DNA from: an uncultured virus (IMG/VR IMGVR_UViG_3300028392_000057)
Taxonomy: Duplodnaviria; Heunggongvirae; Uroviricota; Caudoviricetes
Reading direction: 5' to 3' (one strand)
Virus record (IMG/VR): IMGVR_UViG_3300028392_000057
DNA: 20,000 nucleotides
Part shown: in pieces, positions 2,200 to 20,000 of the stretch
How the letters are laid out: each line of letters begins with the position of its first letter
Position numbering within the stretch: the first letter of the stretch is position 1
Translations under genes and position numbers: made by a program
Notes under the pieces: generated by a model
Seen by the model: only the letters and a program-made list of their open reading frames with translations
Told to the model about the DNA's origin: nothing
Databases searched by the model: none

Positions 2200-4026
2200 T
2201 TAGACAGTAATTGTTCCTGTACCAGCAGTAAATGTGTAAATTTTATTTCCACCTACAGTTGTTTTTGCATAAGTTAACCCTACTCCAATTGATGTAAAGT
2301 CTGGATAATTAGATGGGTACGCAATAATTACTATTCCAGAACCTCCTGCTCCACCTGCTTTTTGTTGCTGAATATTACCTATATGGCCACCACCACCACC
2401 ACCGCCACCGGTGTTAGTAGTACCCGGTGCACCCACAGCATCGGCATAACCACCGTTACCACCACCACCTGTACCGCCGGTACCTGCTGATAATCCAGCC
2501 GGGTGTGAGCCACCGCCACCACCACCTGCATAAGTTACAGAAGTACCGGAGATAGATGATGCTGTACCGTTACCACCATTGCCAGCTGCTCTGGTACTAT
2601 TATTTGCATCTGCACCTACTGCACTAGCACCACCTCCGCCTGCGCCACCTTTGTCATAGTTATTGCCACCTAAACCACCATTATTACCTTGTGATGGTGA
2701 GGTGCTTGGAGTATTTCCAGATCCACCGGGGCCGTTGTTTGTTCCGCCACCGCCACCCGAACCACCACTTCCTGCTGTAGGAGGGGGGTAGTTTTCACTA
2801 GTTCCAAATCCACCGCCGGCTGCTGTAATTGTGCTGAAAACAGAACTTGTTCCACTAACACCAGGACCGCCGGTTCCAGTTCCTCCTGAACCGCCCTGAG
2901 CACCGGGAGGGCCGCCGGCGCCGCCTGTACCTACTGTTACAGTAAATGAGCCGCTAACTGCAAAAGAGGAGCCCGTTCTAAAGCCGCCGGCGCCACCGCC
3001 ACCGCCAATTCCGCCACCGCCACCTCCGCCGCCACCAACCACTAGATAATTTACAGTAGGTGTGACAGAATTTTGCACAACCCAATTAATCACTTGACTA
3101 CTTGTTTTGCCACTGCTATTGGCTGTGGCAGTAAGTAAACTTGATGAATTAGCGGACACAGTTGGTGTCCCGCTAATATTGGCACCGGTGATACTAAGAC
3201 CAGTCGGAAGAGTATTTGCTGTATATACTATACCAAATCCTGCAGCACTAGTTGCAACCATTGTTACATTGCTCATTGCCACATTTAATGATAAGGTGCT
3301 AGTTGAGTTAGGTGCAGGTGAACTCCATGTAACTACGTCTGGCGTAATAGTTAAACTAAAACTACGATTGGTATCTTGTAATTGGGCATCAGTTGCTCTA
3401 ACCGTAAATGTATATGTGGTGGGACTTGCTAATGCCTGACTTATACCAGTTATTGTTCCGTTACTGTTAAATGTTGCTCCTGGTGGTAATGAACCACTAA
3501 AAACACTATAAGTAATAGGTGCATCACCTGTTGCTGTAACTGTTTGATTGAAACTAGCAGTTTCATATACATTACCTAAAGTGCCGGCTGCGGTTGTCCA
3601 ATTTGGTGTTCCACTGTATTGAATGCCTGGAATAGAAATTGCTGTGCTACCATCTGGATTTATAACATATATAACATAGCTACCAGTACTATTTGCTGGA
3701 CTAGTAAATGTAATACTAGTTGAACTTACTACAGATACTACTCCCACTGCACTACCATTAATTAATACACTTGCCCCGGCGACAAATCCAGAACCAGTTA
3801 ATGTAATTGTTTGTCCACCTGCGGTATCGGCGGCTGTGTCGTCACCCGGATAAGCAATACTACTTACACGTGGTGCAACAATTGTACTACCAGTCACACT
3901 AACATTACCTAAAACTAAGGCATTTTGGACATACATACTATTGAACTGGCTATTTGCATTGCCCATATCTGTATTTGCTGGTGGGTTAAAAATATTTTGA
4001 TTTTTTAACTGATAATAATCTGCCAT
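2200..4026 (-). CDS. G1: putative adhesin/receptor-binding protein with an IPT/TIG-like domain, two putative Ig-like domains and a C-terminal glycine-rich domain
   Basis: 608-aa ORF, TAAGG upstream. PRVSSI..GGQTITLTGSGFVAGASVLING..ITFTSP..YVINPDG is IPT/TIG-like (aa ~51-137). ITYSVFSGSLPPGATFNSNGTITG and LPTGLSITGANISGTPT are He_PIG-like. VNYLVVGGGGGGG...GGSGIVIIAYP...YTFTAGTGTITV is a Gly-rich domain. Confidence 0.85.
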   Translation of the reverse strand: MADYYQLKNQNIFNPPANTDMGNANSQFNSMYVQNALVLGNVSVTGSTIVAPRVSSIAYPGDDTAADTAGGQTITLTGSGFVAGASVLINGSAVGVVSVVSSTSITFTSPANSTGSYVIYVINPDGSTAISIPGIQYSGTPNWTTAAGTLGNVYETASFNQTVTATGDAPITYSVFSGSLPPGATFNSNGTITGISQALASPTTYTFTVRATDAQLQDTNRSFSLTITPDVVTWSSPAPNSTSTLSLNVAMSNVTMVATSAAGFGIVYTANTLPTGLSITGANISGTPTVSANSSSLLTATANSSGKTSSQVINWVVQNSVTPTVNYLVVGGGGGGGGGIGGGGGAGGFRTGSSFAVSGSFTVTVGTGGAGGPPGAQGGSGGTGTGGPGVSGTSSVFSTITAAGGGFGTSENYPPPTAGSGGSGGGGGTNNGPGGSGNTPSTSPSQGNNGGLGGNNYDKGGAGGGGASAVGADANNSTRAAGNGGNGTASSISGTSVTYAGGGGGGSHPAGLSAGTGGTGGGGNGGYADAVGAPGTTNTGGGGGGGGHIGNIQQQKAGGAGGSGIVIIAYPSNYPDFTSIGVGLTYAKTTVGGNKIYTFTAGTGTITV

Positions 4027-4036
4027 TTTCTATACC

Positions 4037-5062
4037 TTATACGTTTGTTAATACCCAGCCCTGAGAAGCATTATAATATACCAATGTAAATGCTGAACGG
4101 GCTGTGGTGACTGTCATATTTGAGGCTGCTCCTTGAATATTTGCACCATTTCTACTAACTGTAATAGCATGTACACTGGCATTACCAGTACCATCAATGA
4201 TACCAACTTCAGTTCCTAATGTAGGACTGCTTGGAAGTGTAATAGTTATGTTAGCACTGTTAGTGTTAACGATGTATTTTGTGTTTGCGACTGCTGTAGT
4301 ATTTCCAGTAGCTTCTACATAAGTGTAACCTGATGCACTTGCAACTCCACCAAGATTAAATGTCATTACCTCAATAGCGGCACCACTAGCCGGCGCACTA
4401 CTTAATGTAACGTTTGCATTTGCAACTGAATATGCTGAATGTAATTGACTTACACCATCAATATTGATAATAGTATAATCTTCTGATGTAGGTGCATTGG
4501 TTAATGTAAAGACTGTTTGTACACCATTACCAGTGAATGAGTCAAGTACTATATTAGATCCGGATGATGATGCTACCCAACTTAGTCCACCTGAACCATT
4601 AGTACTTAACAGATATCCATTAGTACCGCCAGTGATTGTTACGTTACCTACATTACCTAAATTAGTTGTACCAGAAACACTTAGTGTACCTGCAATGTTT
4701 GCACCTGTGCCAGTGACGGTCATTATGTTGGCATTACCGGCTGTACTGATTGTTACATTACCACCGGATGTTGCAATACTAACATTACTTGTACCATTAC
4801 TGATAGATGAGCCACCACCAGCTGATTGTGCTACCCAAGATAGATTTGAAGAACCATCTGTGCTTAGTACGTAACCATTAGTACCGCCGGATATTTTAAC
4901 ATTACCGGGTGCACCTAAGTTACTTACACCTGTGACAGACAAGTTGGCCGTTATTGATACGTTTGATCCAGCAATATTGCCAGATGAAGCATCGAGTGTA
5001 ATAGGACCGGTTGTAATGCCGTTCTTTACTACAAAGTTCTTTGTATAACCAGTTGTCGCCAC
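4037..5062 (-). CDS. G2: fibre-associated protein with KNFVVKNG N-terminus, an FTGNG module and a C-terminal T4 gp9/gp10-like beta-sandwich
   Basis: 341-aa ORF with GTG start and AGGGA about 10 nt upstream. LDSFTGNGVQTVFTL..IDGVSQ..APASGAAIEV module, then YIVNTNSANITITLPSSPTLGTEVGIID..ITVSRNGANIQG..FTLVY..GW. Confidence 0.8.
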   Translation of the reverse strand: MATTGYTKNFVVKNGITTGPITLDASSGNIAGSNVSITANLSVTGVSNLGAPGNVKISGGTNGYVLSTDGSSNLSWVAQSAGGGSSISNGTSNVSIATSGGNVTISTAGNANIMTVTGTGANIAGTLSVSGTTNLGNVGNVTITGGTNGYLLSTNGSGGLSWVASSSGSNIVLDSFTGNGVQTVFTLTNAPTSEDYTIINIDGVSQLHSAYSVANANVTLSSAPASGAAIEVMTFNLGGVASASGYTYVEATGNTTAVANTKYIVNTNSANITITLPSSPTLGTEVGIIDGTGNASVHAITVSRNGANIQGAASNMTVTTARSAFTLVYYNASQGWVLTNV

Positions 5063-5112
5063 AGTTCCATATTCCCTGTTGTATTAAATTGTAAGATGCA
5101 AATTAATGCATA

Positions 5113-8100
5113 TTATGTTAGTAGGTAAGTTGTTATTAAGTTAACTGTTGCGGTTCCACCTGAACTAGTTGCATATAATGACACGTTTCCTGACACACCA
5201 TTAATATTACTGCTAATATCAACAATGTCTGCTACTGCGTTAGAACAAACTGATCCATAAATTGTTATGTAACTGTTTGTTCCATCTTGTACTAATAGTG
5301 CTTCAATTGACTGATATCCATTTGCACTTGAAGCACTGATGATATATTTAGCAGTTCTATAAGTTGTTGTTGCAAATTGGTCAATAACAGTATTTGTTGT
5401 TGCTGATACATTTGACCTATTACTCTGTAGTCCACCATTCAATAGAACGTTACCAGTTGTAACATTACCTGTTACAACCAAACTTGTTAGTGTACCAGTA
5501 CTTGTGATATTAGGTTGTGCACCTGTAGTTAATGTACCAGTAAAGTAGTTAGCAGAAACTAAGTTAGCACCTGTGATGTTACCACCACCTGCACCACTTG
5601 AAATTAAATTACCAACAGTAGCATTACCTGATACACTCAATGTACCTGTGATGTTTGCACCAGTACCAGTAACAGTCATTGTTGTATTACCTGCAGAAGC
5701 AATAGTTACATTACCATTTGCAGTAGCGATATTGACATTACTATTTCCGTTGCTGATACCTGATGAACTGATTGAAATAAATGACAATCCACCTGAACCA
5801 TTTGTACTTAGTACTTGACCACTAGTACCACCAGTGATTGTTACATTACCTACAGCACCTAAATTACTTGTGCCAGATACACTTAAACTTGTTAATGTAC
5901 CAGTACTTGTGATATTAGGTTGTGCACCTGTTGTTAATGTACCAGTGAAGTAGTTGGCAGAAACTAAGTTAGCACCTGTGATGTTACCACCACCGCCACC
6001 ACTTGCAACTATGTTACCAACTGTAGCATTACCTGATACACTCAATGTACCTGTGATGTTTGCGCCAGTACCAGTAACAGTCATTGTTGTATTACCTGCA
6101 GACGCAATAGTTACATTGCCGTTTGCAGTTGCAATATTAACATTGCTATTTCCGTTAGCATGTGGGCCTATTAAATTACCAACAGTTGCATTACCTGATA
6201 CACTCAGTGTACCTGTGACGTTAGCACCAGTAGCAGTTACAACAACAACGTTTGCAGTACCAACTGCACTAATATTAACATTGCCGTTTGCTGATGGAAT
6301 ATTTACGTTACTATTTCCATTACTGATACTTGATGAACTGATTGATACGAATGACAATCCACCTGAACCGTTTGTAGTTAGAACTTGTCCATTTGAGCCA
6401 CCGGTAATTGTTACATTACCAACTGCACCTAAATTGCTTGTGCCAGAAACACTTAAACTTGTTAATGTACCAGTACTTGTGATATTTGGTTGAGCCGCTG
6501 TTGTTAATGTACCAGTAAAGAAGTTAGCAGAAACTAAGTTAGCACCAGTGATGTTACCACCTGTACCAGCTCCTGCACTAATGTTACCAAATGTACCATT
6601 ACCTGTTATACTTAATGTAGTACCATTGAATGTGTTAGCAGAGATTACGTTGGCATTACTAATATTACCACCAGAACCACCTGCAGTTATCAAATTACCA
6701 ACAGTAGCGTTACCCGTTACAGATAGTAAACCACCTGTAACTAAGTTAGCACCAGTAATGTTACCAGTAGCAGTGATTAATGCTGTACCTAAGTTAGCAA
6801 CGTTAGCATTACCTGTAACAGACAATACACCACCTGTAACTAAGTTAGCACCAGTGATGTTACCAGTAGCAGTGATTAATGCTGTACCTAAGTTAGCAAC
6901 GTTAGCATTACCTGATACACTTAATGTACCGGCTATATTAGCACCTGTTCCAGTAACAACTAATATGTTAGCATTACCAGCTACGCTTGTAGTTACATTA
7001 CCTCCGGCTGTTGCAATACTAACATTACTATTACCATTTGATACGCCAGCTGTGCCAATTGTTATAAATGACAATCCACCTGAACCATTTGTACTTAGTA
7101 CTTGTCCACTAGTACCGCCAGTGATTGCTACATTACCAACTGCACCTAAACTAGTTAATCCAGATACAGTCAAATTACCAGCAGTGACATTACCGCTAGC
7201 ACTGAATGTGTTCGCAGAAATCACGTTAGCATTAGTAATGTTACCACCTGAACCACCTGAAGTTGTTAAGTTACCAACGACAGCATTACCTGTAACAGTT
7301 AATGTACCGGCTGTACTAATGTTACCAAATGTACCATTACCGGTAGCACTTACAATGCCACCTGTTATTAAATTAGCACCAGTAATATTTCCTGTTGCAG
7401 TAATTAAGCCACCTGTACCTATGTTGCCAATGTTAGCGTTACCGGTTACACTTAATGTGCCGGCTATGTTAGCACCAGTACCTGTAACTGTTACTATTGT
7501 ATTACCTACAGCAGTAATAGTTACATTTCCGTTTGCAGTTGCAATATTAACATTACTGTTACCATTAGCATGTGGGCCAATTAAATTAGCACCAGTAATA
7601 TTTCCTGTAGCAGAAACTAATCCACCTGTAATTAAATTAGCACCAGTTATATTACCAGTTGCAGTAATCAATCCACCTGTACCCAAGTTACCAACGTTAG
7701 CATTACCACTTGCACTTAATGTACCAGTTATGTTAGCACCAGTTGATGTTACTACTAGTACGTTTGCAGTGCCTGCAACTGTCATTGCTATGTTACTATT
7801 AGCAGTAATAGCAATATTACTGTTACCATTAGCATGAGGGCCAATTAAATTAGCACCAGTGATGTTACCTGTAGCAGTAATTATACCTGTACTAATGTTA
7901 CCAAATGTACCATTACCTGTAGCAGAAACAATACCACCACTAATGATATTACCACCGGTAATGTTAGCAGTAGCACTGAATGTGTTGGCTGCAATTACAT
8001 TAGCACCAGTAACGTTACCACCTGAACCACCTGTTGTTAAGTTACCAACTGTAGCGTTACCAGAAACTGATAATGTTGTCAATGTACCAATTGCTGTAAT

Positions 8101-9839
8101 TTGTGTTTGACTTGCGTTAGCACTAATTGTAGTACCAACAATATTAATACCTGTACCAGCATCATAAATTTGACTTGTACTGAATACAGCGAATGTAATA
8201 TTACTAGTACCAAATGTGATTACTCCGGCTGGGGCACTAACTACAAAAGCAACACCCTCATTAACTACACCGCCTAGTGTAAAGAAGTAATCATTGATAC
8301 TTAATTGTTCTGTGCTGTCTGGTCCATATTCGTCAGTATCAGTAGAACGAACGATAGCTGTCGTATTAGAATATGTATAAACACCATTCCATGTTGCATT
8401 AGCTTCATTCTTAACTAAGATACGTGTACCAACTGTTTGAACGTTTGCGCTGTCAATTAATAAGAATGTACCAGTTGTACTAATATAAGCACCAATACCA
8501 TTTGCAGCTCCATTAGGTGAATTGTATGCGGTTGTACCGCCTGTAGCAACTGCTAATGTAGTTGTAGTTGCGACATTGACTGGTTGGTGATAACTGATAC
8601 CACTTGATACCATTGTATCAACATACAATTTAGATGCGGCATCTGTATTTGAAACTGCATATCCAATGTTACTTAAGAAAAAGCCGTTCATATTAACATT
8701 GGCACCAAAGCTACCTGCTCCAGTTGCGACTAATGCTGTTACACCTAAATTACCTACGTTAGCGTTACCTGATACACTTAAGTTAGCACTTGTTACAAAA
8801 CCGCTTGAATTTAAATTACCTACGTTAGCGTTACTAGTAATAGTTACTAGATTACTACCTTTATTAAACGTGAATGCTGTACTTGTATTAGCATTACCTG
8901 CGTCATTGAATACAACACCTGTATTAGAACCGGGGATAGTAATACTACCTGAGATATTACCAGAAACGTTACCAACAACGTTACCAATGAAGTACGGAGA
9001 AGTTATATTACCAGTAGCAGTTAATGTGCCTGTTATATTAGCCCCAGCTCCATCAACAACTAATACGTTTGCATTTCCTGTACTTGAAATTGTGACATTG
9101 CCATTAGCTAATACAGTTACATTACTATTACCATTTGTAAGTGCAGAAGAACTGATTGAGATAAATGATAGATTACCTGCACCATCAGTTGACACAACTT
9201 GACCACTAGTACCACCGGTAACTCTAACATTACCAATAGCACCTAAACTACTTACTCCAGAAACTGTTAATGTACCGGCACTTACTGCATTGGAAGTGAC
9301 TAAGTTTCCACCAGTAATGTTGCCAGTAGCAGTAATTAAACCAGCTGTGCCAATATTACCAATATTAGCATTACTTGTTACAGATAATACACCACCTGTA
9401 ACTAAATAGCACCAGTAATATTGCCAGTAGCAGTAATTAAACCACCGGTAATCAAATTAGCACCAGTAATATTGCCCGTAGCAGATACAACACCGCCTGT
9501 ATTTAAATTGCCTGCGTTAAGATTACCTGTAGCAGTAATTAATCCACCTGTACCAATGTTACCAATATTGGCATTAGCAGCTACTGATAGGCTTGCTAAT
9601 GTGCCAACTGAAGTGATATTTGGTTGTGCCGCAGTTGTTAACGTACCTGTAAAATAGTTAGCAGAAATTAAGTTAGCGCCGGTAATATTACCGCCACCTG
9701 CTCCTGTTGTAATCAAATTACCAACCGTTGCATTACCAGACACCGATATGTTGTTAGCTGTTACATTACCTGATGCGGCGTCTAAAACGATATTACCTGT
9801 TGTAATACCATTCTTAACAACGAAATTTTTTGTAGTCAT
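5113..9839 (-). CDS. G3: long repeat-rich fibre-like protein (about 1575 aa if intact), interrupted by a 1-bp deletion near 9406; joins track ORFs 9402..9839 and 5113..9195
   Basis: ATG at 9839 with AAGGA at 9850-9846 and a MTTKNFVVKNGITTG start. GGT GCT AT TTA GTT ACA lacks one A compared with the repeat consensus GGT GCT AAT TTA (GANL). The downstream frame is open from 9405 to the TAA at 5113. The track start at 9195 is an internal Val of GQVVSTDGAG. Ends in an RTAKY domain. Confidence 0.85.
5493..6157. repeat. Intragenic direct repeat of about 260 bp (5493-5752 and 5898-6157; 405-bp offset)
   Basis: Both copies begin accagtacttgtgatattaggttgtgcacctg and share long identical runs such as gtagcattacctgatacactcaatgtacctgtgatgtttgc. 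Confidence 0.85.
6731..6914. repeat. Intragenic tandem duplication with 99-bp (33-aa) period; 85-bp core with one mismatch
   Basis: ccacctgtaactaagttagcaccagt(a/g)atgttaccagtagcagtgattaatgctgtacctaagttagcaacgttagcattacctg at 6731-6815 and 6830-6914. Confidence 0.9.
8070..8710 (-). repeat. Copy 2 of the triplicated domain (in G3)
   Basis: YVDTMVSSGISYHQPVNVATTTTLA..GTRILVKNEANATWNGVYTY..RSTDTDEYGPDST; boundaries approximate. Confidence 0.85.
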
Positions 9840-9851
9840 TTTATTTCCTTT

Positions 9852-12629
9852 TTAATCCGGGACATATGTTCCCATTAAGTTTAAATTTGTATTTGCGCCA
9901 ACCGCTGTCGCATATACGTTTACATTTCCTGCACTAATATCTGTGTCAAAAGCTACCAAATCAGTTGACGAGGTTGATAAACTACCATAAACAGTTATAA
10001 TACTATTTATGCTATTGTGAACTAAAAGAACTTCTAGTGCTTGAAAATCAGTTCCATTGCCTGCCCGCATTGTATATTTCGCAGACCTAAATTGGGTAGT
10101 AGGAAATACGTCAATTAGAGTATTAGATGTAATTGGAATTGATGTACGTTTACTATATAGATCCGTAACCTTTATGTTTACCGCATCAATTGTATTTGAA
10201 ATTGTCAAATTAGCAGAATTTATATTGCCCGATGCACTTATATTACCAGAATTTATATTACCAGTGATGCTTAGGAACGAACCATTTAAATTTCCAAAAT
10301 CTATATTACCCGAAGTACTTAAATTACCGGTGATTATGTTTCCAGTAATGCTTAAGAAAGACGCATTTAAATTAGCAGAACTGATGTTACCTGAGGCAGA
10401 GAATGTATTGGCAGATATCACATTAGCACCAGTAATGTTACCACCTGTGCCATTTGATGTAATATTACCAAATGTAGCATTACCTGAATTTATGTTACCG
10501 GAGATTATATTCCCGGTGACACTTAAGAATGAACCATTAAAGTTACTAGCATCTATATTACCCGATGCACTTAAATTACCCGAAGTTATATTACCGGTAA
10601 TGCTTAAGAAAGAGGCATTTACATTACCGGAACTTATGTTACCAGTAGCACTTATATTGCCGGAATTTATGTTACCAGTAGCACTTATATTGCCGGAGAT
10701 CACATTAGCAGTAACACTTAGATTGCCAGAGTTAATATTACCAGAAGCACTTAGGTTACCAGAGTTAATATTACCAGAAGCACTTAGATTTCCGGAGTTT
10801 ATATTTCCCGTAATACTTAAGAAAGAACTGTTTAAGTTACCCGAATCTACATTGCCTGAAACACTTAGATTGCCGGAGTTTATAGTACCAGTAACACTTA
10901 AACTAGTTAATGTTCCTGTACTTGTGATATTTGGTTGTGCTGCCGTTGTTAATGTGCCTGAGAAATAGTTAGCTGTTGCTAGATTACCTAGGTTAGCATT
11001 ACCTGATGATATATTTCCTGTAACTACAATATTAGTATTAGCTTGAACATTACCGTTAACTTCAATTCCACCACTTACTGACAATCCGGATAATATGCCA
11101 ACACTAGTGATGTTAGGTTGTGAAGCCGTTGTTAATGTACCGGTTACAGTAGTGAACACGCCACCAGTAGCACCAATATTACCAACGTTACTATTGCCAC
11201 TTACACTTAAACTAGTTAATGTACCTGTACTTGTGATGTTTGGTTGAGCCTGAGTTGTCAGTGTACCTGTTAACAAATTACCAGAAACGTTTCCAATTAC
11301 TGTAACATTATTATTAGCTATTAAATTACCCTGAATTGTGACGTTTCCGGTAGTGCTACCTACAACAACATTGGCTACTAAGCCTAAATTAATATCTGTT
11401 ATACCTGAGTTAAAAAAGCCGGCTGCGTTACCAATAACTGCAATAGCTCCGTTCCCAATAAGAACACATCCGCTATTTGATACTAGATAGTTAGCAGTAA
11501 CAATATTACCCAAATTAGCATTACTTGCGGCTATATTTCCGTTTAATGTTAATAAGTTGGCTGTACTATTAAATGTTAGATTATTACTTCCAGCAAATTC
11601 ACCGTTATTATTGAATTGAATAGTTGTATTTGAACCACCGGGTATACCACCCACATCCAATGGTTGACCATTAGCGTAATAATAATTGTCAGTTAATATA
11701 CCACTGACTGCGGCGTTTCCAGTTGAACTTAATGTTCCAGCTACATTTACACCAGTACCAGTAATTTTAAAGATATTTGCATTACCGTTAGCAGTAAAAG
11801 TTATGTCTGTTTCACGTAGTGTTAGTACACTTGAGCCATTGGCGCTAGAAAAGCTAGTTGTGTTTGCATTTCCACTTAGTACGAATTGTCCACCATTGCC
11901 GTTAGTAAAAACAAGATTTGCACCTGCAGTAGAAATTGTACTGTTGCCAATATAAATTGTAGTACCGGATAGATATAAATCGTTCCAACGATTGGTTGTA
12001 TTACCTAAATCATATATAATATTTGCGCTAGGCAATAAGCTACCAGTAAATATTCCTGATCCAGGAACTGATAAATTACCTGATACTGTATCGAATGTGA
12101 ATCCTGTATTACCGGTTAACTCACCGTTATCATCAAATATAACTTGGCTATTAAGTGAGTTAATAGCAGTACCAACTTCAGCTAATATACCATCTACTTC
12201 TAACGCACCGTCAATCTCAATAGGAACTGTAAATAATCCTTGAAAGTTAGTGGGAACATAATATGTTTCTCCTACAGGGACGTAGAAGGGCATTGGTGCC
12301 GCACTAGTATTAACTGCAGGATCAGCAAATATTAGATTACCACTACCATCTGTTTGAATTAGTTGGCCATTGGCTCCACCAAATATATGTACATTGGCTA
12401 TGTTTCCAAGATTGCTTGCACCATTAACTGTCAGTGAACTTAGACTTAGGGTGTTACTCCAAACTCTAGTATTACTTGTGCTTATTGTCAATACCGAGTT
12501 ATCTGCACCCGCACCAAGACTTGGTTCTGCTTGACTAAGCCCTAAGAACTGGTAGCGGTCGTTTGACAGGTTACTATAAGGAGTAACCGGAGCACGACCA
12601 CTTAACAGCTTTGAGTTATTCATTGCCAT
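9852..12629 (-). CDS. G4: repeat-rich fibre-like protein with a distinct N-terminal domain and a C-terminal RSAKY domain
   Basis: 925-aa ORF starting 3 nt after the G5 stop. N-terminus KLLSGRAPV..DRYQFLGLSQAEPSLG, fibre-type motif YDLGNTTNRWNDLYL, SGNINSGNLSA tandem repeats, C-terminus IDVFPTTQFRSAKYT..EVLLVH..VYG. Confidence 0.88.
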   Translation of the reverse strand: MAMNNSKLLSGRAPVTPYSNLSNDRYQFLGLSQAEPSLGAGADNSVLTISTSNTRVWSNTLSLSSLTVNGASNLGNIANVHIFGGANGQLIQTDGSGNLIFADPAVNTSAAPMPFYVPVGETYYVPTNFQGLFTVPIEIDGALEVDGILAEVGTAINSLNSQVIFDDNGELTGNTGFTFDTVSGNLSVPGSGIFTGSLLPSANIIYDLGNTTNRWNDLYLSGTTIYIGNSTISTAGANLVFTNGNGGQFVLSGNANTTSFSSANGSSVLTLRETDITFTANGNANIFKITGTGVNVAGTLSSTGNAAVSGILTDNYYYANGQPLDVGGIPGGSNTTIQFNNNGEFAGSNNLTFNSTANLLTLNGNIAASNANLGNIVTANYLVSNSGCVLIGNGAIAVIGNAAGFFNSGITDINLGLVANVVVGSTTGNVTIQGNLIANNNVTVIGNVSGNLLTGTLTTQAQPNITSTGTLTSLSVSGNSNVGNIGATGGVFTTVTGTLTTASQPNITSVGILSGLSVSGGIEVNGNVQANTNIVVTGNISSGNANLGNLATANYFSGTLTTAAQPNITSTGTLTSLSVTGTINSGNLSVSGNVDSGNLNSSFLSITGNINSGNLSASGNINSGNLSASGNINSGNLSVTANVISGNISATGNINSGNISATGNISSGNVNASFLSITGNITSGNLSASGNIDASNFNGSFLSVTGNIISGNINSGNATFGNITSNGTGGNITGANVISANTFSASGNISSANLNASFLSITGNIITGNLSTSGNIDFGNLNGSFLSITGNINSGNISASGNINSANLTISNTIDAVNIKVTDLYSKRTSIPITSNTLIDVFPTTQFRSAKYTMRAGNGTDFQALEVLLVHNSINSIITVYGSLSTSSTDLVAFDTDISAGNVNVYATAVGANTNLNLMGTYVPD
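10220..10905 (-). repeat. Degenerate 33-bp (11-aa, SxxGNIxSGNL) tandem array with periodic 5-aa NxSFL inserts, within G4
   Basis: SITGNINSGNL-SASGNINSGNL-SASGNINSGNL-SVTANVISGNI-SATGNINSGNI-SATGNISSGNV-NASFL; DNA ttaccagaagcacttag recurs at 33-bp spacing. Confidence 0.85.
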
Positions 12630-12632
12630 ATT

Positions 12633-12971
12633 TTATGATCCGGTAACCAATGTTTCTAAATAACTCAATACTAACTGTGCGCTAGTATCATCACTACTTG
12701 TAAATTGCAATATATCTCCGTAATTTAAAATCAATCTTCCAGTTAGTACTGTACTAGCGTCATTAATAGGCACACTAGCCTCTTTGACTAGTGATGTGTA
12801 GTTACCAGTACGATATACCCCGGCTGATATTTGTATTGTTCCTACACCAATATTACTAATTTGTGCCATCAAAACAACTGTAGAATAACCTATAGGTGGA
12901 GTGTATACATTGGCTGTAGTAGTTGTAATATCTGCTAATGTTGTTCTAAAATTATTTAATGCTGCTGGCAT
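12633..12971 (-). CDS. G5: small beta-rich hypothetical protein, candidate fibre adaptor
   Basis: 112-aa non-repetitive ORF with AAGGA at 12981-12977. Pattern NVYTPP..STVVL..ISN..LVK..VP..RLIL..GD.L..LSYLE resembles small proteins in fibre clusters of large T4-like phages. Confidence 0.8.
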   Translation of the reverse strand: MPAALNNFRTTLADITTTTANVYTPPIGYSTVVLMAQISNIGVGTIQISAGVYRTGNYTSLVKEASVPINDASTVLTGRLILNYGDILQFTSSDDTSAQLVLSYLETLVTGS

Positions 12972-12990
12972 GTTATTCCTTTATTCTTTC

Positions 12991-14241
12991 TTAATCGTTA
13001 CCCAACGCCAATATGAATGGTGTCATTTGAGCAAATAAACTTTGGTAAAAATCGGTACCAGTAATGGTTCCAGTAGCTTGATTAATTGTAAATCCATTAC
13101 CTACTTTAAAATTTCCTTTTTGGTCTGTACTTGTAAACGTTATGACTGCTCCATTTGTAGCTACAACTTCATTTGCTTCAATTGGTATACCACCATACTG
13201 TGGTAATGCTGTTGCAGGATTAGTTCCTGCACCCACATATTCAAATGTGTGAGCACTTGCTATAATTGAGCTTCTTGTGTAAAATTCAACATTTGTTCCC
13301 GGAGCAACAGTTTGAGTAAAAACTTGTTGTATAACTACTGTTGATTTTCCAGCACTTGGTTGATTAGGTAAAATAGTATCAATTGTATAATAGTTGGGAT
13401 CACCAGCGACTAACACAACCGTATTTACGTGAGGTTGACCATTAGTCAAACTATTAAGTACAAATGTTCCATACAGTTCTGATTCTAATGTACCGGATGT
13501 TTGTAATGGTCCAACACCATCTGCGACTAAACCATAGTTACCAATAGAACAATCACTACCATTTAAAGTACAGAATCCACCTGACTCTACTTTAATACCA
13601 ATATCACAGGCAATAGTGTAAATATTAACTAACTGACTGTAACCTGAATTTAAAATATGAATACCTTTACCACCACGATTAATAATTGTAAAGAATCCTA
13701 CAATCATTGCTTTAGTGCTTATGCTACTAACATTAGCTCCGTCAATATAAACAGCAGTACCAGTTGTAGTACTTGATGTTAAATTCTGTATGTATGGGCT
13801 TACAAATACATTCTGTGATGGCGTTGCTGGGTTATAGCTAAATCCATTAGCAGTATAGTTTTTAATTGTGATACCCCAAACATAACAACCATTTGTCATA
13901 TAAAACAAATCAGAGGATGGTGTTTGCGGTATTACAGTAACATTTCTTAAATTGTCTCCCATCAACGCTACATTAGATGGAATAGTAATAGGGTTAGCTT
14001 CAGTATAAGTACCCGGAGCAACATGAACTGAAATGTTTCCGGCCGCAGCCGCAGTCATTGCGGCCTTGATAGTTAAAAACGGATTGTTTATCGTACCGGT
14101 GTTACTATCATTACCATTTTTACCTACGTAGATAATGTTTTGAGATGTGTTTAATAGATTACCGTCGGCATCTATTACAACTTTGTTGTTGCCATCACCT
14201 ACACTGAAACCAGCTACTGCATTAAAAGGTTTTATTGCCAT
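12991..14241 (-). CDS. G6: pectin-lyase-like (parallel beta-helix) virion protein, tailspike-like
   Basis: 416-aa ORF. IYVGKNGNDSNTGTINNPFLTIKAAM..VHVAPGTYTE..ITIPSNVALMG is the typical N-terminal cap of pectin-lyase-fold proteins. Ends SAHTFEYVGAG..STDQKGNFKVG..LFAQMTPFILALG. N-terminus shared with G7. Confidence 0.8.
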   Translation of the reverse strand: MAIKPFNAVAGFSVGDGNNKVVIDADGNLLNTSQNIIYVGKNGNDSNTGTINNPFLTIKAAMTAAAAGNISVHVAPGTYTEANPITIPSNVALMGDNLRNVTVIPQTPSSDLFYMTNGCYVWGITIKNYTANGFSYNPATPSQNVFVSPYIQNLTSSTTTGTAVYIDGANVSSISTKAMIVGFFTIINRGGKGIHILNSGYSQLVNIYTIACDIGIKVESGGFCTLNGSDCSIGNYGLVADGVGPLQTSGTLESELYGTFVLNSLTNGQPHVNTVVLVAGDPNYYTIDTILPNQPSAGKSTVVIQQVFTQTVAPGTNVEFYTRSSIIASAHTFEYVGAGTNPATALPQYGGIPIEANEVVATNGAVITFTSTDQKGNFKVGNGFTINQATGTITGTDFYQSLFAQMTPFILALGND

Positions 14242-14251
14242 TTCTTACTTC

Positions 14252-17200
14252 TTAAATAAATCTCACTTGTGTTGTCCAAACTGTACTATTACTAGTTGCT
14301 GGAGTAACTTGCAATGCTACATTGCCGCCTACTACATTAACTGCTAATGAGCCTGTTGTTGCGTTTAAAGATGCTGTTGCATATGTTACATAATCGACTG
14401 TTGATCCATTTGTTACTGCGGTAACAGTTGACACACTATATTTAGAACCAGTAGAATCTACACCCTTAACTAAAAACTCCATAGCCGCTATACCAGTTGT
14501 ACTAAATTGTACAATGGTTTGATTAGCAGTAATTGAAGTAGTTGTTGTAGTTCCTGTTGCAATTGTAGTAGTACCAAGAGTAAGATTTCCTGAAAGAGCT
14601 ACTACATTTGATACTTTATTAAATGTAAACGCTGTGCTTGTATTGGCATTGCCGTTGTCATTAAATACAACACCTGTGTTAGCACCAGGGATAACAATAT
14701 TACCTGAAATATTACCAGATACATTACCAACAAAAGTGGTAGCAATAACGTTACCAATAACTGTTAAATTGCTAGTAACATAATCATATGTAAGATTAGC
14801 ATTTGCGGCAAAGTTGTTGTTACCATCATTAAACTGAATCTGTCTATTAGAGCCGGCAGCTTCTTGTAAATCCCAAGGTTGACCGTTTGCATACAATAGA
14901 TGGTCTGTACGTAGATTACCTACATTTGCTGTATTAGTAACATTTAAATTGCTTGATACGTTTATAAAATTTGCTGTAGCTAAGTTACCTAAATTAGCAT
15001 TTAATGATGTTAGGTTACCAGATGCACTGATAATACCACCAGTAATAATATTACCACCGGTAATATTAGCAGTAGCAGTGAATGTATTTGCTGATACTAC
15101 ATTAGCACCAGTAATATTTCCACCTGATCCAGTTGTACTAATATTACCAAATGTACCATTACCAGTTGCAGAAACAATGCCGGCTGTTATAATATTACCA
15201 CCAGTGATGTTACCAGTAGCAGTAATCAATCCACCTGTTATGACGTTAGCACCGGTGATATTACCGATTGCAGTAATTAATCCACCTGTACTAATATTAG
15301 CGAATGTACCATTACCGGTTGCAGTAACTACCCCTGTACCAATATTACCAATATTAGAATTACCTGACACACTCAATGAAGTTAATGTACCGACTGCTGT
15401 AACTTGTGTTTGACTTGCATTTGCGCTGATTACAGTGCCTACAATATTAATACCAGTTCCAGCAGTATATACTTGAGATCCACTGAATATACTAAATGTG
15501 ATATTTGAAGTACCAAATATAATTACTCCAGGCGGAGAACTAACTACAAAACCAGTACCTATATTAACTATACCACCTTGAGTAAAAAAGTAATCATTGA
15601 TACTTAATTGTTCTGTACTATCTGGACCATACTCGTCTGCATCAGTTGAGCGTACAATAGCTGTTGTGTTGGCATATGTGTAAACGCCATTCCATGTAGC
15701 ATTAGCTTCATCTTTAACTAAGATGCGTGTGCCTACAGTTTGTACATTAGCACCATCAATTAAATTATATGTACCTGTTGTACTGATATAAGCACCAATA
15801 CCATTTGCCGCACCATTTGGTGAGTTATATGTAGTAGTACCGCTAGTAGCTATTGCTAGAGTGGTTGTAGTTGCAACATTGACTGGTTGGTGATAACTGA
15901 TACCACTTGATACCATGTTATCTACATATTGTTTTGAGGCTGCATCAGTTACCAGTACTGGATAACCTACATTGTTTATCCATTTACCAGTGATATTTAA
16001 ATTGCCTGCAATAAGACTATCTGCTGTACCATTTACAGTTAATACTCCACCTGTAGTTAAGTTGCCACCGGTGATATTACCTGATGCAGTTACTACTGTT
16101 GATACTAGATTTGTAGCGCCCAAATTACCTACGTTAGCGTTACCCGTTACAGACAGTGAACCACCTGTAGTTAAGTTACCACCAGTTACATTACCAGTAA
16201 TAGTAATTAATCCAGCTGTGCTAATGTTGCCAAATGTACCATTACCGGTGGCAGTTACTATACCACCAGTTATTATATTAGCACCAGTAATGTTACCAGT
16301 AGCAGTAATTAGTCCACCTGTTATTAAATTAGCACCGGTGATATTACCAGTCGCAGTAATTAAGCCACCGGTTGATATGTTAGCGGCAGTGATGTTACCA
16401 CTTATTGATACTGCATTTGATATTTTATTAAATGTAAACGCTGTGCTTGTATTAGCATTTCCTTGATCGTTAAATACAACACCTGTATTAGCTCCAGGAA
16501 TGACAATGTTACCAGAAATATTACCAACTACGTTACCAATGAAGTTTGGTGCGTATACGTTTCCTGTAAAGTTTGCTGTGTTACCTGATAATTCTAAATT
16601 AACTGTTGCATTAGAAGTAGTTGTATTTCCTGCTGTGATTAAATTGCTACCGGTAATATTACCAGTAGCAGTAATAAATCCACCTGTACCAATATTACCT
16701 ATGTTGGCATTACCAGCTACTGTTATTAATCCAGTTGTTGATATGTTTCCTGCACCAATATTGCCCACTGCAGTAATTACACCAGCTGATCCAATATTGC
16801 CAATATTAGCATTACCAATGATTGATACACTTGCTAATGCACCAACACTTGTAATATTAGGCTGTGCGTTAGTTGTGAGTGTTCCTGTTATAGTAGTAAA
16901 TGTACCATTGTAAGCACCAATGTTTCCAACATTAGCATTACCTATTACGCTTAATAATCCAGTTGCTATTAAGTTACCTGAACTTACATTACCAACTGTA
17001 CTTAAATTACCTGCAGTAGCATTGCCGGATGCACTGAATGTGCCGGCTACAATAAGTCCTGTGCCAGTCACAATGGCTACGTTTGCGTTTCCTGCAGAAC
17101 TAATTGCTATGTTTGCATTAGCATAAACTTTGACATTACTATTACCGTTTTGAATACTAGTAGCATCAATACCTGTTAAGTAAGCACCGTTACCCAAAAA

Positions 17201-17347
17201 GAAGTTAGCTGTAATGTTACCATTAGCAGTTATATTTGCATTAGCTTGTATGTTGCCGGTAATTATGTCACCATTTGCTAATACAACGTTGGCTGGTATT
17301 TCTCCAACTGAGAAGCCAGCGACCGAGTTAAATGGTTTAATTGCCAT
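14252..17347 (-). CDS. G7: repeat-rich fibre-like protein with AIKPFN N-terminus, YHQPVNVATT domain and type A C-terminal domain
   Basis: 1031-aa ORF with AAGGA at 17359-17355. Many GGLITATGNITGANL repeats. C-terminus MEFLVKGVDSTG..TGSLAVNVVGGNVALQVTPATSNSTVW. Confidence 0.9.
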   Translation of the reverse strand: MAIKPFNSVAGFSVGEIPANVVLANGDIITGNIQANANITANGNITANFFLGNGAYLTGIDATSIQNGNSNVKVYANANIAISSAGNANVAIVTGTGLIVAGTFSASGNATAGNLSTVGNVSSGNLIATGLLSVIGNANVGNIGAYNGTFTTITGTLTTNAQPNITSVGALASVSIIGNANIGNIGSAGVITAVGNIGAGNISTTGLITVAGNANIGNIGTGGFITATGNITGSNLITAGNTTTSNATVNLELSGNTANFTGNVYAPNFIGNVVGNISGNIVIPGANTGVVFNDQGNANTSTAFTFNKISNAVSISGNITAANISTGGLITATGNITGANLITGGLITATGNITGANIITGGIVTATGNGTFGNISTAGLITITGNVTGGNLTTGGSLSVTGNANVGNLGATNLVSTVVTASGNITGGNLTTGGVLTVNGTADSLIAGNLNITGKWINNVGYPVLVTDAASKQYVDNMVSSGISYHQPVNVATTTTLAIATSGTTTYNSPNGAANGIGAYISTTGTYNLIDGANVQTVGTRILVKDEANATWNGVYTYANTTAIVRSTDADEYGPDSTEQLSINDYFFTQGGIVNIGTGFVVSSPPGVIIFGTSNITFSIFSGSQVYTAGTGINIVGTVISANASQTQVTAVGTLTSLSVSGNSNIGNIGTGVVTATGNGTFANISTGGLITAIGNITGANVITGGLITATGNITGGNIITAGIVSATGNGTFGNISTTGSGGNITGANVVSANTFTATANITGGNIITGGIISASGNLTSLNANLGNLATANFINVSSNLNVTNTANVGNLRTDHLLYANGQPWDLQEAAGSNRQIQFNDGNNNFAANANLTYDYVTSNLTVIGNVIATTFVGNVSGNISGNIVIPGANTGVVFNDNGNANTSTAFTFNKVSNVVALSGNLTLGTTTIATGTTTTTSITANQTIVQFSTTGIAAMEFLVKGVDSTGSKYSVSTVTAVTNGSTVDYVTYATASLNATTGSLAVNVVGGNVALQVTPATSNSTVWTTQVRFI
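15380..15985 (-). repeat. Copy 3 of the triplicated domain (in G7)
   Basis: YVDNMVSSGISYHQPVNVATTTTLA..GTRILVKDEANATWNGVYTY..RSTDADEYGPDST; boundaries approximate. Confidence 0.85.
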
Positions 17348-17368
17348 AATCTTTTCCTTTATTAATCA

Positions 17369-17375
17369 TATTTAT
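17369..17375 (-). promoter_or_regulatory. Candidate T4-type late-promoter-like motif (ATAAATA) upstream of G7
   Basis: Minus strand reads TCAGATAAATATGATTAATAAAGGAAAAGATTATG; 7 of 8 positions match TATAAATA, just upstream of the RBS. Confidence 0.4.
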
Positions 17376-17392
17376 CTGAATTTTATAATACA

Positions 17393-19999
17393 TCATGGGG
17401 CATACTCCGTAATTGTCATTTTGTAAGTTGTTGAATTTGACGAGTCAGGAGTAACTAACAATCGTACACTTGGTTGAACAATAATATTACCTGCATTATA
17501 GTCAACTGAGAATGATCCAGTTCCCCCATTTATTTGTAACCCACCATATTCATTGAAAGCAACAATATTTCCATATAACAATGATGATATTTTAACTGAC
17601 TGTCTTGTTGCACCCGTGACATCTGTTGCTATAATATGAAAGTCTACTCCTGAAACATTTGATGCCAAAGTAGTCCATAAAACTTGACTGGATGCAGTAG
17701 ATGTAGTTGTTGCAAAATAAACATATTGTGTTGAAAATTTGTAAATCCCGGCACCAACTTGAGTGCTATTTGCTACTAAATTACCAGCTACTTGTAAAGT
17801 ATTTGTTACTTCATTAAATGTTAAGAAAGAACTACCGCCAAATACACCACCGTCATTATACTGTACTTGTGTGTTTGACCCACCAGGTACTCCGTTGCCA
17901 CCGCCACCGCCACCAGTTGCCCAACTTAAGTTACCTGCACCGTCAGTGCTTAATACGTATCCGTTTATTCCACCGCTAATATGAAGATTTGAAACATTGC
18001 CCAAATTCACATTAGAAGATCCATCAGTGTTAACAGTACCTAACACTCTTAATTGTCCAACACTACCTACTTGTAAAGTACCATTAACATTTGCATTTCC
18101 AACAACAGTTGAATTAGTTGATACTATTGTACCATTTGTATCTAAATTACCTACTCGTATATTACCTGTAATACTTCCTGTACCATTAACATTTAGTGCA
18201 GTTAATGTACCAACTGAAGTAATGTTAGGTTGTGATGCATTTGCTACAGTTAATGCAACATTTGAATTTGTTGAACTGGTTGCAAATGTTGCAGTATTTG
18301 CAGTTTCTACACTTAAATTTGCTACTTTTGTAGTAGATGTAACTACAAAAGGACTAGTTCCATTTGCTACATTTGATATAAATCTACTACTTTGAATTGT
18401 ACTATTTGATGTAATATTTCCTAATACAGTTAGTGTCTTAGTTGTATTATTAAATGTAAATGATGAATTACCATCTAATAAACCTAGATTATTAAACTGC
18501 ACTTGAGTGTTAGTTCCGCCGGCTGATCCACCACCTGCTGGTTGCCAAGATAAATTACCTGAACCATTAGTAGACAATACATAATTTGCATTACCACCTG
18601 TAATTGTTAAATTAGATACACTACCTAAATCAACAGGACCTCGTACTGTCAATTCTGTTAATGTACCAACTAATGTTACATTTGGTTGTTCATTTGTACT
18701 AAGTACTCCGGCTACAATTGTAGAATAGATGTTACTAACATAAAGGTCACCGGTAATATCAATATCACTTTGCGGGCCAGTACCACTCATACTACCATTA
18801 AAAGTTATATTACCATTGGCTCCTGGTAAACTTGTGTCAATATTTAAGAATTCTAAATTACCAACTGTATGTATATTAGCTTGTGTTTGTGTAGTAAGTG
18901 TACCAGTTAAGAAATTAGCACTTACTAAGTTACCACCTATAATATTACCAGATACACTTAAACTAGTTAATATGCCCACTGTTGTAATATTTGGCTGTAA
19001 TGGATTAACTACATTTCCTGCATAGTATGCATAATTAGCATCATCTATATTACCTATTAAATTACCAAAGAAGTATGGAGCTGTGATATTACCTGAACTT
19101 GACAAACCAGTCAATGTACCAACACTTGTAATGTTAGGTTGATAATTTGTTGTTAGTGTACCAGTAACATAATTAGCAGAAACTAAATTACCACCTGCTA
19201 CATTAGCACCAGTAATATTTCCAGTTACAACTAATGATGTTAATGTTCCAACTGAAGTAATGTTAGGCTGTGCATTTGTAGTAACAGTACCTGCTGTATT
19301 TGATGACCCTGCTGATACCGAGAACGTTGCATTGGCTACTGTTCCAACTACATTAGAACCAGTTAGTTGTGATAATCCACTACCATTACCAATAAAATAA
19401 GTAGCAATAATATTACCATTTGCTGTTAAAACATTGCTAGAATAGTTAAACCTAAGCGCATCACTTGCGCCTGCATTGCCTTCTTGATTAAAGATAACAC
19501 TGGTGTTTGTACCGGGAACTACAAAATTCCCAGATATATTTCCAACAACATTACCAATAAAATACGGTGCTGTAATATTACCTGAACTTGTTAAAGTAGT
19601 TAGTGTACCAACACTTGTAATGTTAGGTTGAGTATTGGTTGTTACAGTACCGGACGTATTTGATGATCCAGCTGATACTGCAAATGTTGCATTAGCCACG
19701 GTACCTAAAACGTTAGCACCTGTTAATTGACTTAGTCCACTACCATTACCCGCAAATCTACCAGTATTAGCAGTAATGTTTGTAGCTGTAATATTACCAC
19801 TTACGTTTAATAATGATAATGTACCTGTACTTGTAATGTTAGATTGAGCACTTGTTGTTAATGTACCGGTTAAGAAATTAGCAGAAACTAAATTACCACC
19901 AGTAATATTAGCTCCAGTAATATTTCCACTTACTATCAATGAAGTTAATGTTCCAACTGACGTAATATTGGGTTGTGCGTTATCAATTACAGTATTAGA
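17393..19999 (-). CDS. G8: repeat-rich fibre-like protein, 5' partial (at least 868 aa), with type A C-terminal domain
   Basis: The frame is open beyond the track TTG at 19939 to the window edge (SNTVIDNAQPNITSVGTLTSLIVSG), so the true start lies outside. QPNITSVGTLT and PGGSNTQVQYND modules. C-terminus VDFHIIATDVTG..TGSFSVDY..LLVTPDSSNSTTY, TGA stop. Confidence 0.9.
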   Translation of the reverse strand, partial: SNTVIDNAQPNITSVGTLTSLIVSGNITGANITGGNLVSANFLTGTLTTSAQSNITSTGTLSLLNVSGNITATNITANTGRFAGNGSGLSQLTGANVLGTVANATFAVSAGSSNTSGTVTTNTQPNITSVGTLTTLTSSGNITAPYFIGNVVGNISGNFVVPGTNTSVIFNQEGNAGASDALRFNYSSNVLTANGNIIATYFIGNGSGLSQLTGSNVVGTVANATFSVSAGSSNTAGTVTTNAQPNITSVGTLTSLVVTGNITGANVAGGNLVSANYVTGTLTTNYQPNITSVGTLTGLSSSGNITAPYFFGNLIGNIDDANYAYYAGNVVNPLQPNITTVGILTSLSVSGNIIGGNLVSANFLTGTLTTQTQANIHTVGNLEFLNIDTSLPGANGNITFNGSMSGTGPQSDIDITGDLYVSNIYSTIVAGVLSTNEQPNVTLVGTLTELTVRGPVDLGSVSNLTITGGNANYVLSTNGSGNLSWQPAGGGSAGGTNTQVQFNNLGLLDGNSSFTFNNTTKTLTVLGNITSNSTIQSSRFISNVANGTSPFVVTSTTKVANLSVETANTATFATSSTNSNVALTVANASQPNITSVGTLTALNVNGTGSITGNIRVGNLDTNGTIVSTNSTVVGNANVNGTLQVGSVGQLRVLGTVNTDGSSNVNLGNVSNLHISGGINGYVLSTDGAGNLSWATGGGGGGNGVPGGSNTQVQYNDGGVFGGSSFLTFNEVTNTLQVAGNLVANSTQVGAGIYKFSTQYVYFATTTSTASSQVLWTTLASNVSGVDFHIIATDVTGATRQSVKISSLLYGNIVAFNEYGGLQINGGTGSFSVDYNAGNIIVQPSVRLLVTPDSSNSTTYKMTITEYAP

Positions 20000-20000
20000 T

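Follow-up and report, generated by a model that had tools for sequence, protein, structure and literature searches.

Putative serial joints of the T4 gp9-gp34 type in the fibre-gene cluster of an uncultured tailed virus

A 20,000-nucleotide stretch of an uncultured tailed virus (Caudoviricetes; IMG/VR record IMGVR_UViG_3300028392_000057; hereafter the window) contains nine fibre-like genes, G8 to G0, all on the minus strand, and raises the question of how their products might be joined. A first-pass annotation noted that four of these genes end in a related domain, two of type A and two of type B, that each is followed by a gene with a matching start peptide, and proposed that the peptide docks on the C-terminal domain of the preceding gene's product. 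The facts hold at all four junctions, and the docking proposal is supported by a gp9-type fold and by a modelled complex. We conclude that the cluster's products are quite probably trimeric fibre segments, each linked head to tail with the next by a repeated version of the joint between gp9 and gp34 of phage T4. We refer to the C-terminal domains as sockets and to the start peptides as plugs.

The first type A junction lies between G8 (17393..20000; its 3' part, open at the window end), which ends in socket A1 (17396..17695), and G7 (14252..17347; 1031 amino acids comprising plug A, a repetitive shaft and socket A), which starts with MAIKPFNSVAGFSVG (plug A, 17294..17347). The second lies between socket A2 at the end of G7 (14255..14554) and G6, which starts with MAIKPFNAVAGFSVG (plug A, 14188..14241). 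The type B junctions follow G4, which ends in socket B1 (9855..10154), and G3 (5113..9839; plug B, shaft and socket B), which ends in socket B2 (5116..5415); the genes behind them, G3 and G2 (4037..5062; 341 amino acids, GTG start), both start with TKNFVVKNGITTG (plug B, 9786..9839 and 4997..5062, respectively). All of these features are on the minus strand. The spacers measure 45 and 10 base pairs (bp) at the type A junctions, as first described, and 12 and 50 bp at the type B junctions. Comparison by hhalign finds homology between the A and B domains (probability 97.7) and between the A and B peptides (95.6), as the annotation had supposed.

The window's sockets are 20–25% identical to the first one (A1 and A2, 25%). 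Plug cores have a mean identity of 0.61–0.66 compared to 0.14–0.16 for the shafts, and 54–55% of the same-residue codons in plugs are synonymous but different, which shows selection on the peptide; at KNFVVKNGITTG, 8 of 12 codons differ, and the Ser of FSVG is encoded by TCA in one gene and AGT in the other, exactly as first reported. From the diverged codons and spacers the annotation argued against duplication of the junctions. Codon and synonymous-site divergence does reject a recent duplication, but not an old one, as an old crossover within the repetitive shafts would copy a junction as a block.

Structural models relate the sockets to gp9. Modelled as single domains, sockets B and A reached predicted local distance difference test (pLDDT) scores of 95.9 and 97.3. 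Among 48,161 chains, the best match to socket B (B2) was a gp9 homologue from Klebsiella phage KP1 (PDB chain 9F4A_LA, residues 183–299; Z 10.8, root-mean-square deviation (rmsd) 1.9, 99 residues aligned), and socket A best matched the C-terminal domain of the same chain (residues 189–299; Z 9.4, rmsd 2.2, 94 aligned). Both models display the eight-stranded fold of the gp9 C-terminal domain (gp9-C), and Foldseek matched socket B to T4 gp9 (1QEX; E 3.6e-4). At the sequence level, B1 and B2 match the C-terminal end of phrog_967, a gp9-type tail-fibre connector family (E 2e-5 and 1.6e-3, respectively). The A sockets had no phrog_967 match in the PHROG search, the sockets had no match to Pfam PF23618, their hhalign probability against the single T4 gp9 sequence was below 1, and hidden Markov model searches with both socket alignments found no matches among PDB sequences. 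The N-terminal gp9/gp10 anchor PF07880 has no match in G7, G4, G3 or the window part of G8. Of 247 socket copies in the first set of loci, 245 end at the stop codon. On the models and the fold search, each socket is thus a C-terminal domain of the gp9-C fold and, by analogy with gp9, would be a trimer.

The plugs, in turn, resemble the start of gp34. The accessible text of PMC3004832 describes the N-terminus of T4 gp34 as attaching coaxially to the gp9 C-domain, and the parts available of PMC10253068 and bioRxiv 10.64898/2026.03.06.709160 likewise have the long fibre of T4 held there. T4 gp34 starts with KREFRAEDGLDAG (NC_000866), and a core of the F-x4-G-[LF] type is common to eight gp34 starts. 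Both plug matrices place gp34 at the top of 75 T4 gene starts (64 kb of genome), albeit at low scores (4.6 and 2.4 nats, compared to at least 11 for true plugs). The plug is likely, to judge from these starts, to be homologous to that of gp34.

We modelled a 3:3 complex of the G8 socket with residues 1–45 of G7, a check that the first-pass annotation had suggested. The complex scored 0.93, while the best of three controls scored 0.00; in calibration, 116 of 157 solved complexes attained the score mark, as did 2 of 215 mismatched pairs, rates that apply only approximately to a socket-plug model. Contact agreement between runs was at least 97% and the partner pLDDT at least 92. In the model, plug residues 2–10 and 16–18 contact socket residues 38, 44–54, 58, 60–61 and 63–66; residues 44–54 form the predicted plug-binding edge strand. 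The closest socket-plug pairs (49-9, 50-8 and 51-7) suggest an antiparallel strand added alongside the one bearing Tyr50. This residue is the centre of the interface and occupies one of the four columns at which all sockets of the window agree. The model thus predicts that a socket binds the N-terminus of a fibre trimer.

This geometry bears on the precedent that had first been suggested, donor-strand complementation in chaperone-usher pili, in which each subunit docks on its predecessor through an N-terminal extension and order follows from pairwise preference. There, an incomplete fold is completed by the next subunit; here, the sockets are predicted to fold alone (pLDDT 96–97, with 94–99 of 100 residues aligning to full gp9-C) and the plug strand would join the edge of an already complete domain, so that donor-strand complementation is rejected on the models. 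T4 gp9-gp34 is the actual precedent.

If sockets take plugs of their own class, the two should be associated wherever the junction occurs, as the annotation also proposed to check. We collected 159 loci through their sockets and 8 more, merged them to 138 and removed identical junctions; plugs were typed by matrices, an earlier regular-expression typing having been discarded as too loose. Socket A (n = 150) is followed by plug A at 146 junctions, plug B at 2 and no plug at 2; socket B (n = 107) is followed by plug B at 92 and no plug at 15. The matching class therefore stands behind 238 of 257 sockets, compared to any plug-like start at 65 of 723 non-socket junctions (58 A-like, nearly all a variant found at the chain root; 7 B-like; 658 none). 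The matrices behind the 238/257 count were trained on the same loci, and leave-one-out typing, in which 216 of the 219 junctions with a core motif agree and a further 23 are without a core match, is the fairer figure.

The reverse test started from plugs, because distant sockets, lacking conserved stretches for alignment-based locus scans, could be sampled via plug patterns only. A DNA pattern scan gave, among the matches listed, 124 and 123 stretches for the two patterns; duplicates were merged, and 25 and 36 were dropped for short flanks. Among these listed matches, socket A lies upstream of 61/61 genes with an N-terminal plug A (one further match is internal and chance-like), and 67 plug-B genes have socket B upstream in 42 cases and a socket nearer A in one. 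Clustered at 40% identity, the listed matches comprise 10 clusters in which a socket precedes plug B and 19 with plug B and no socket; when four plug-B contigs without an adjacent socket were tested, three had one 10–18 kb away.

Three variations on the junction were seen in single loci or small groups. At L037, near 10300, an HNH-like gene is inserted between socket gene and plug gene. At L158, the sockets are followed by a short tail and by starts that we take to be Mtd_N-like. In L146, L149, L152 and L163–L168, genes of 136–140 amino acids, consisting of little beyond an N-terminal peptide and a socket, have a socket gene on one side and a plug-B gene on the other and are candidate minimal adaptors.

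The specificity classes, of which at least two had been proposed, include, besides A and B, a third at the root of the chain. The chain's first gene has no upstream socket, yet its N-terminus is a variant of the plug, [DE]-x-F-N-x-x-G-G-[FY]-S-V-G-I-P. Full-length G8 (1785 amino acids; L001:1805-7162) begins with this acidic root plug, there MAFEPFGLVGG..GIPP; its first 100 residues have no PHROG match. The socket predicted to lie elsewhere was found in all five long records as one extra small A-related socket open reading frame, 84–119 kb from the cluster and near the terminase gene; phrog_967, used as a whole-genome query, missed it. The encoded protein matches PF07880 in 5/5 records (above the curated cut-off in 1/5) and is, judged by its sequence, a minimal gp9. 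Plug position 4 is Asp or Glu in 43 of 45 root plugs and Lys or Arg in 125 of 143 A plugs; socket position 46, which the model places against plug position 4, is Lys or Arg in 30 of 38 remote gp9-like sockets and Asp in 68 of 71 A2 sockets. Position 49 also differs, being Gly in 33 of 38 remote sockets and Glu in 64 of 72 A1 sockets. Root plug and remote socket would thus be a charge-swapped pair, and because the complementary change spans genes 84–119 kb apart, it could not come from block inheritance.

A number of observations weigh against a chain of gp9-gp34-type joints. On the socket tree (120 sockets), the A/B label needs just two changes, so the A/B concordance amounts to one ancient split and one exception lineage, not many independent events, and junction DNA inherited as a block accounts for it with no binding at all. 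Some sockets have no plug behind them (15/107 B, 2/150 A, and the socket gene of S-SM2), and 24 of the 67 plug-B genes among the matches listed have no upstream socket gene. In L061 and L063 (near 10270–10450), an A socket is followed by a B-derived plug with an altered core (KYFNVINGITVG), either a natural mismatch or a re-tuned pair. The fold alone is no proof of a socket, because tailspike C-domains rank next in the fold search (Z 9.5 for B and 8.5 for A). gp9-C-like folds also end tailspikes without a known partner, such as RaK2 gp529 (accessible part of PMC10253068), and the portion of bioRxiv 10.64898/2026.05.12.724579 at hand names the gp9-C-type fold among carbohydrate-binding C-terminal modules. 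Forty-seven of the best 150 socket-profile matches carry 2–9 tandem gp9-C-like domains, and none of the 173 internal sockets in these 47 proteins is followed by a plug, as a fused socket-plug protein would show. As for gp34, one of seven further starts is negative under both plug matrices, and hhalign of plug against gp34 is weak (probability 8.9 and 1.1). The complex model covers one cognate pair, used alignments that we had built ourselves and is a job unlike the calibration set; it may have passed because it resembles gp9-gp34 complexes that are already solved (9F4A and 9X3R contain gp34). Finally, the charge swap is one evolutionary event with close relatives counted, residue 46 of G8's own socket is Ala, and the window's own root partner is uncertain because its genome has two fibre clusters and one remote socket match.

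The tandem gp9-C-like proteins (P0006–P0034 and others), some of which have a gp9/gp10-like N-terminal motif ahead of the domains, are candidate multi-socket hubs or beaded fibres.

Taking the joints as real, the leading 18 or so residues of each following segment, in three copies on the threefold axis, are predicted to add a beta-strand to the edge strand of the socket. At the root, the acidic plug would fit the basic socket of the small stand-alone gp9-like protein and so anchor the fibre to the virion. For A and B, the pairing is known from genomic adjacency, and a preference for the own class would follow. The usual chain behind the head gene reads root-A, A-A, A-B, B-B, B-end, while the number of joints and the length of the segments vary widely. 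Class conversion would be achieved by segments with plug A and socket B or by G6-G5-G4, a triad that takes their place in the window; because such converters change one class into the other, the class code would set the coarse order root-A-A-B-B-end. Crossovers in the repetitive shafts would then add, remove or swap segments while the joints stay matched. One chain from G8 to G1 (6793 amino acids) would measure ~400 nm at the ratio of the T4 distal fibre (740 Å per 1247 amino acids).

How strictly gene order dictates the order of assembly is a separate matter, and the strict coding implied by the first-pass annotation is unproven. We can only tentatively propose a fibre of several hundred nanometres and up to eight proteins with the joint code root/A1/A2/triad/B1/B2/end, each socket taking its own plug class only. 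It is also possible, if on balance not probable, that the joints are real and order within a class is uncoded, so that G7 (A/A) and G3 (B/B) dock to themselves or are skipped, giving fibres of varying length and make-up. Genes whose own plug agrees with the next one at no fewer than 11 core residues out of 13 number 16/34 for B and 2/52 for A; the window's own pairs share 12/13 and 11/13. Because a B segment's own plug so often equals the next, order within the class may not be fixed, and within a class plugs appear nearly interchangeable. The plugs behind A2 sockets are, in addition, varied. Against uncoded order, A1 and A2 are, as noted, only distantly alike and have different residues at columns 46 and 49 of the interface, and the plug after A1 keeps Glu16 in 63/72 and Pro18 in 57/72, within the modelled contact 16–18; these differences suggest a finer specificity. 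Order inside a class would probably come from such finer differences or from co-expression, and may be loose.

The triad is where the chain might be broken. G6 (12991..14241; 416 amino acids) consists of plug A, a DUF1565 region and a C-terminus resembling the tail fibre family phrog_17885; G5 (12633..12971; 112 amino acids) belongs to phrog_1276 and is a candidate adaptor; G4 (9852..12629; 925 amino acids) has an N-terminus resembling the tail fibre family phrog_8745 and ends in socket B1. The G6 C-end, G5 and the G4 N-end (window 12500–13300) form a candidate three-part joint, and in the mapped loci a G5-like gene is always flanked by a G6-like C-end on one side and a G4-like N-end on the other. 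No gp9-type joint exists between G6 and G4, and the DUF1565/beta-helix-type region of G6 is typical of fibre ends. These features would suit two or more separate chains, G8-G7-G6 ending in a receptor-binding G6 and G4-G3-G2(-G1) anchored by the N-terminus of G4, with G5 as an assembly factor. We consider this unlikely, as in most relatives a single gene with plug A and socket B occupies the place of G6-G5-G4, and the triad, which occurs at other positions too, shifts as a unit, with the plug always in front and, where the triad is complete, the socket at the end (L059, L061, L063, L094, L106, L111, L126). Because of this behaviour we regard the triad as a putative in-line linker.

That there is no joint at all, the C-domain being a trimerisation or carbohydrate-binding tip, the peptides docking fibres singly on a virion hub and the junctions being block-copied by old unequal crossovers, would fit the single A/B split on the socket tree, plug A + socket B genes as crossover hybrids, the gp9-C folds and module listing at tailspike ends cited above and multi-socket proteins of up to nine copies as hubs, but is highly improbable in view of the complex model (0.93 versus 0.00), a root charge complementarity outside the reach of block inheritance, and the single remote socket found per record, which would not suffice for a hub serving every plug.

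Beyond the last socket, the end genes follow another pattern. The C-terminal domain of G2 matches the N-terminal modules of gp34-proximal and tail-spike proteins (phrog_972 and others). G2-like genes carry plug B behind socket B in L001 and L098 and plug A behind socket A in L048; a related G2-type gene also has plug A behind socket A in L045, L049 and the second cluster of the genome discussed below. Such a plug swap is expected from shaft crossovers, with or without binding. G1 (2200..4026; 608 amino acids, He_PIG and glycine-rich) is a candidate terminal segment. Around window positions 3980–4330, a G2-type C-end is followed by starts of the type MADY[YF]Q[LV]KN, as in G1, and a variant C-end by MLILLQRAS starts; the G2-G1 joint is possibly a third, XD-like joint family. 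G0 (window 1–2082; 888 amino acids in L081) starts with MALTVIKPSGID, has shaft blocks in common with G7 and G3 and is without a class A or B plug.

Genomic context was read from IMG/VR record G002 (524,565 bases), which is identical to the window in 20,000 of 20,001 columns. In the window, G3 has a one-base frameshift inside a repeat (9400–9415, near 9408); G002, otherwise identical, reads it as 1575 amino acids, and the frameshift may be an assembly error or a natural variant. The cluster follows genes of the T4 type for the portal, the head protease and the major head protein. G002 holds two related fibre clusters (G002:C1, 145000–185000 and 345000–404000), with neighbouring genes duplicated in opposite orientation, and may be two joined phage genomes. 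No close cultured relative was found by tblastn against cultured phages (socket A, zero matches; socket B, just 9 cyanophage records).

The closest precedent remains the attachment of T4 gp34 to gp9, the connector between baseplate and fibre, itself fixed to the baseplate through gp7. Common to it and the present joints are the C-terminal fold seen in the KP1 homologue (9F4A), an F-x4-G-[LF]-type core, a separate gp9-like gene at a distance from the fibre genes and, as predicted here, a trimeric fibre N-terminus as coaxial partner (as the accessible text of PMC3004832 has it for T4). T4 uses this joint once, whereas here the socket is also fused to the far ends of long segments and would be used four times in a row, in at least three sequence classes. 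The T4 chain gp34-gp35-gp36-gp37 likewise consists of separate proteins placed end to end, gene order being chain order, but every joint in it is its own structure, and no coded module recurs along it. Branched receptor-binding proteins (RBPs), namely the KP32 branching domain with its conserved peptide, CBA120 TSP4/TSP2 and the gp10-like XD of RaK2, also dock a trimer by a short N-terminal peptide on another protein's domain (available portion of PMC13352976), and a conserved N-terminal peptide is found on the docking proteins here as well; charge complementarity has been proposed for partner choice among them (PMC8825819, as far as its accessible text goes). Their docking domains are of the gp10 XD type, lie internally or near the N-terminus, leave the carrier tip free and make side branches, whereas the sockets are of gp9-C type, sit at the extreme C-terminus and would extend the fibre in line. 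The literature searched, whose coverage was partial, yielded neither a description of serial gp9-type joints nor a paper dealing with the 9F4A/9X3R interface, so a prior description is possible. New relative to T4 would be the serial, class-coded use of the gp9-gp34-type joint, together with an acidic root plug and a remote basic gp9-like socket.

Such joints would explain how large phages build fibres beyond the length of one protein and vary that length by adding or swapping segments, and would assign a role to a socket domain that occurs across 7,508 clusters of proteins grouped at 50% identity. The T4 gp9-gp34 interface, specificity included, would become testable with 100-residue domains and short peptides, the charge swap between root and A offering a one-residue test of the joint code. 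If the proposal is true, socket-plug pairs would be orthogonal, threefold-symmetric connectors, and fibre architecture would be readable from sequence across thousands of uncultured-virus proteins.

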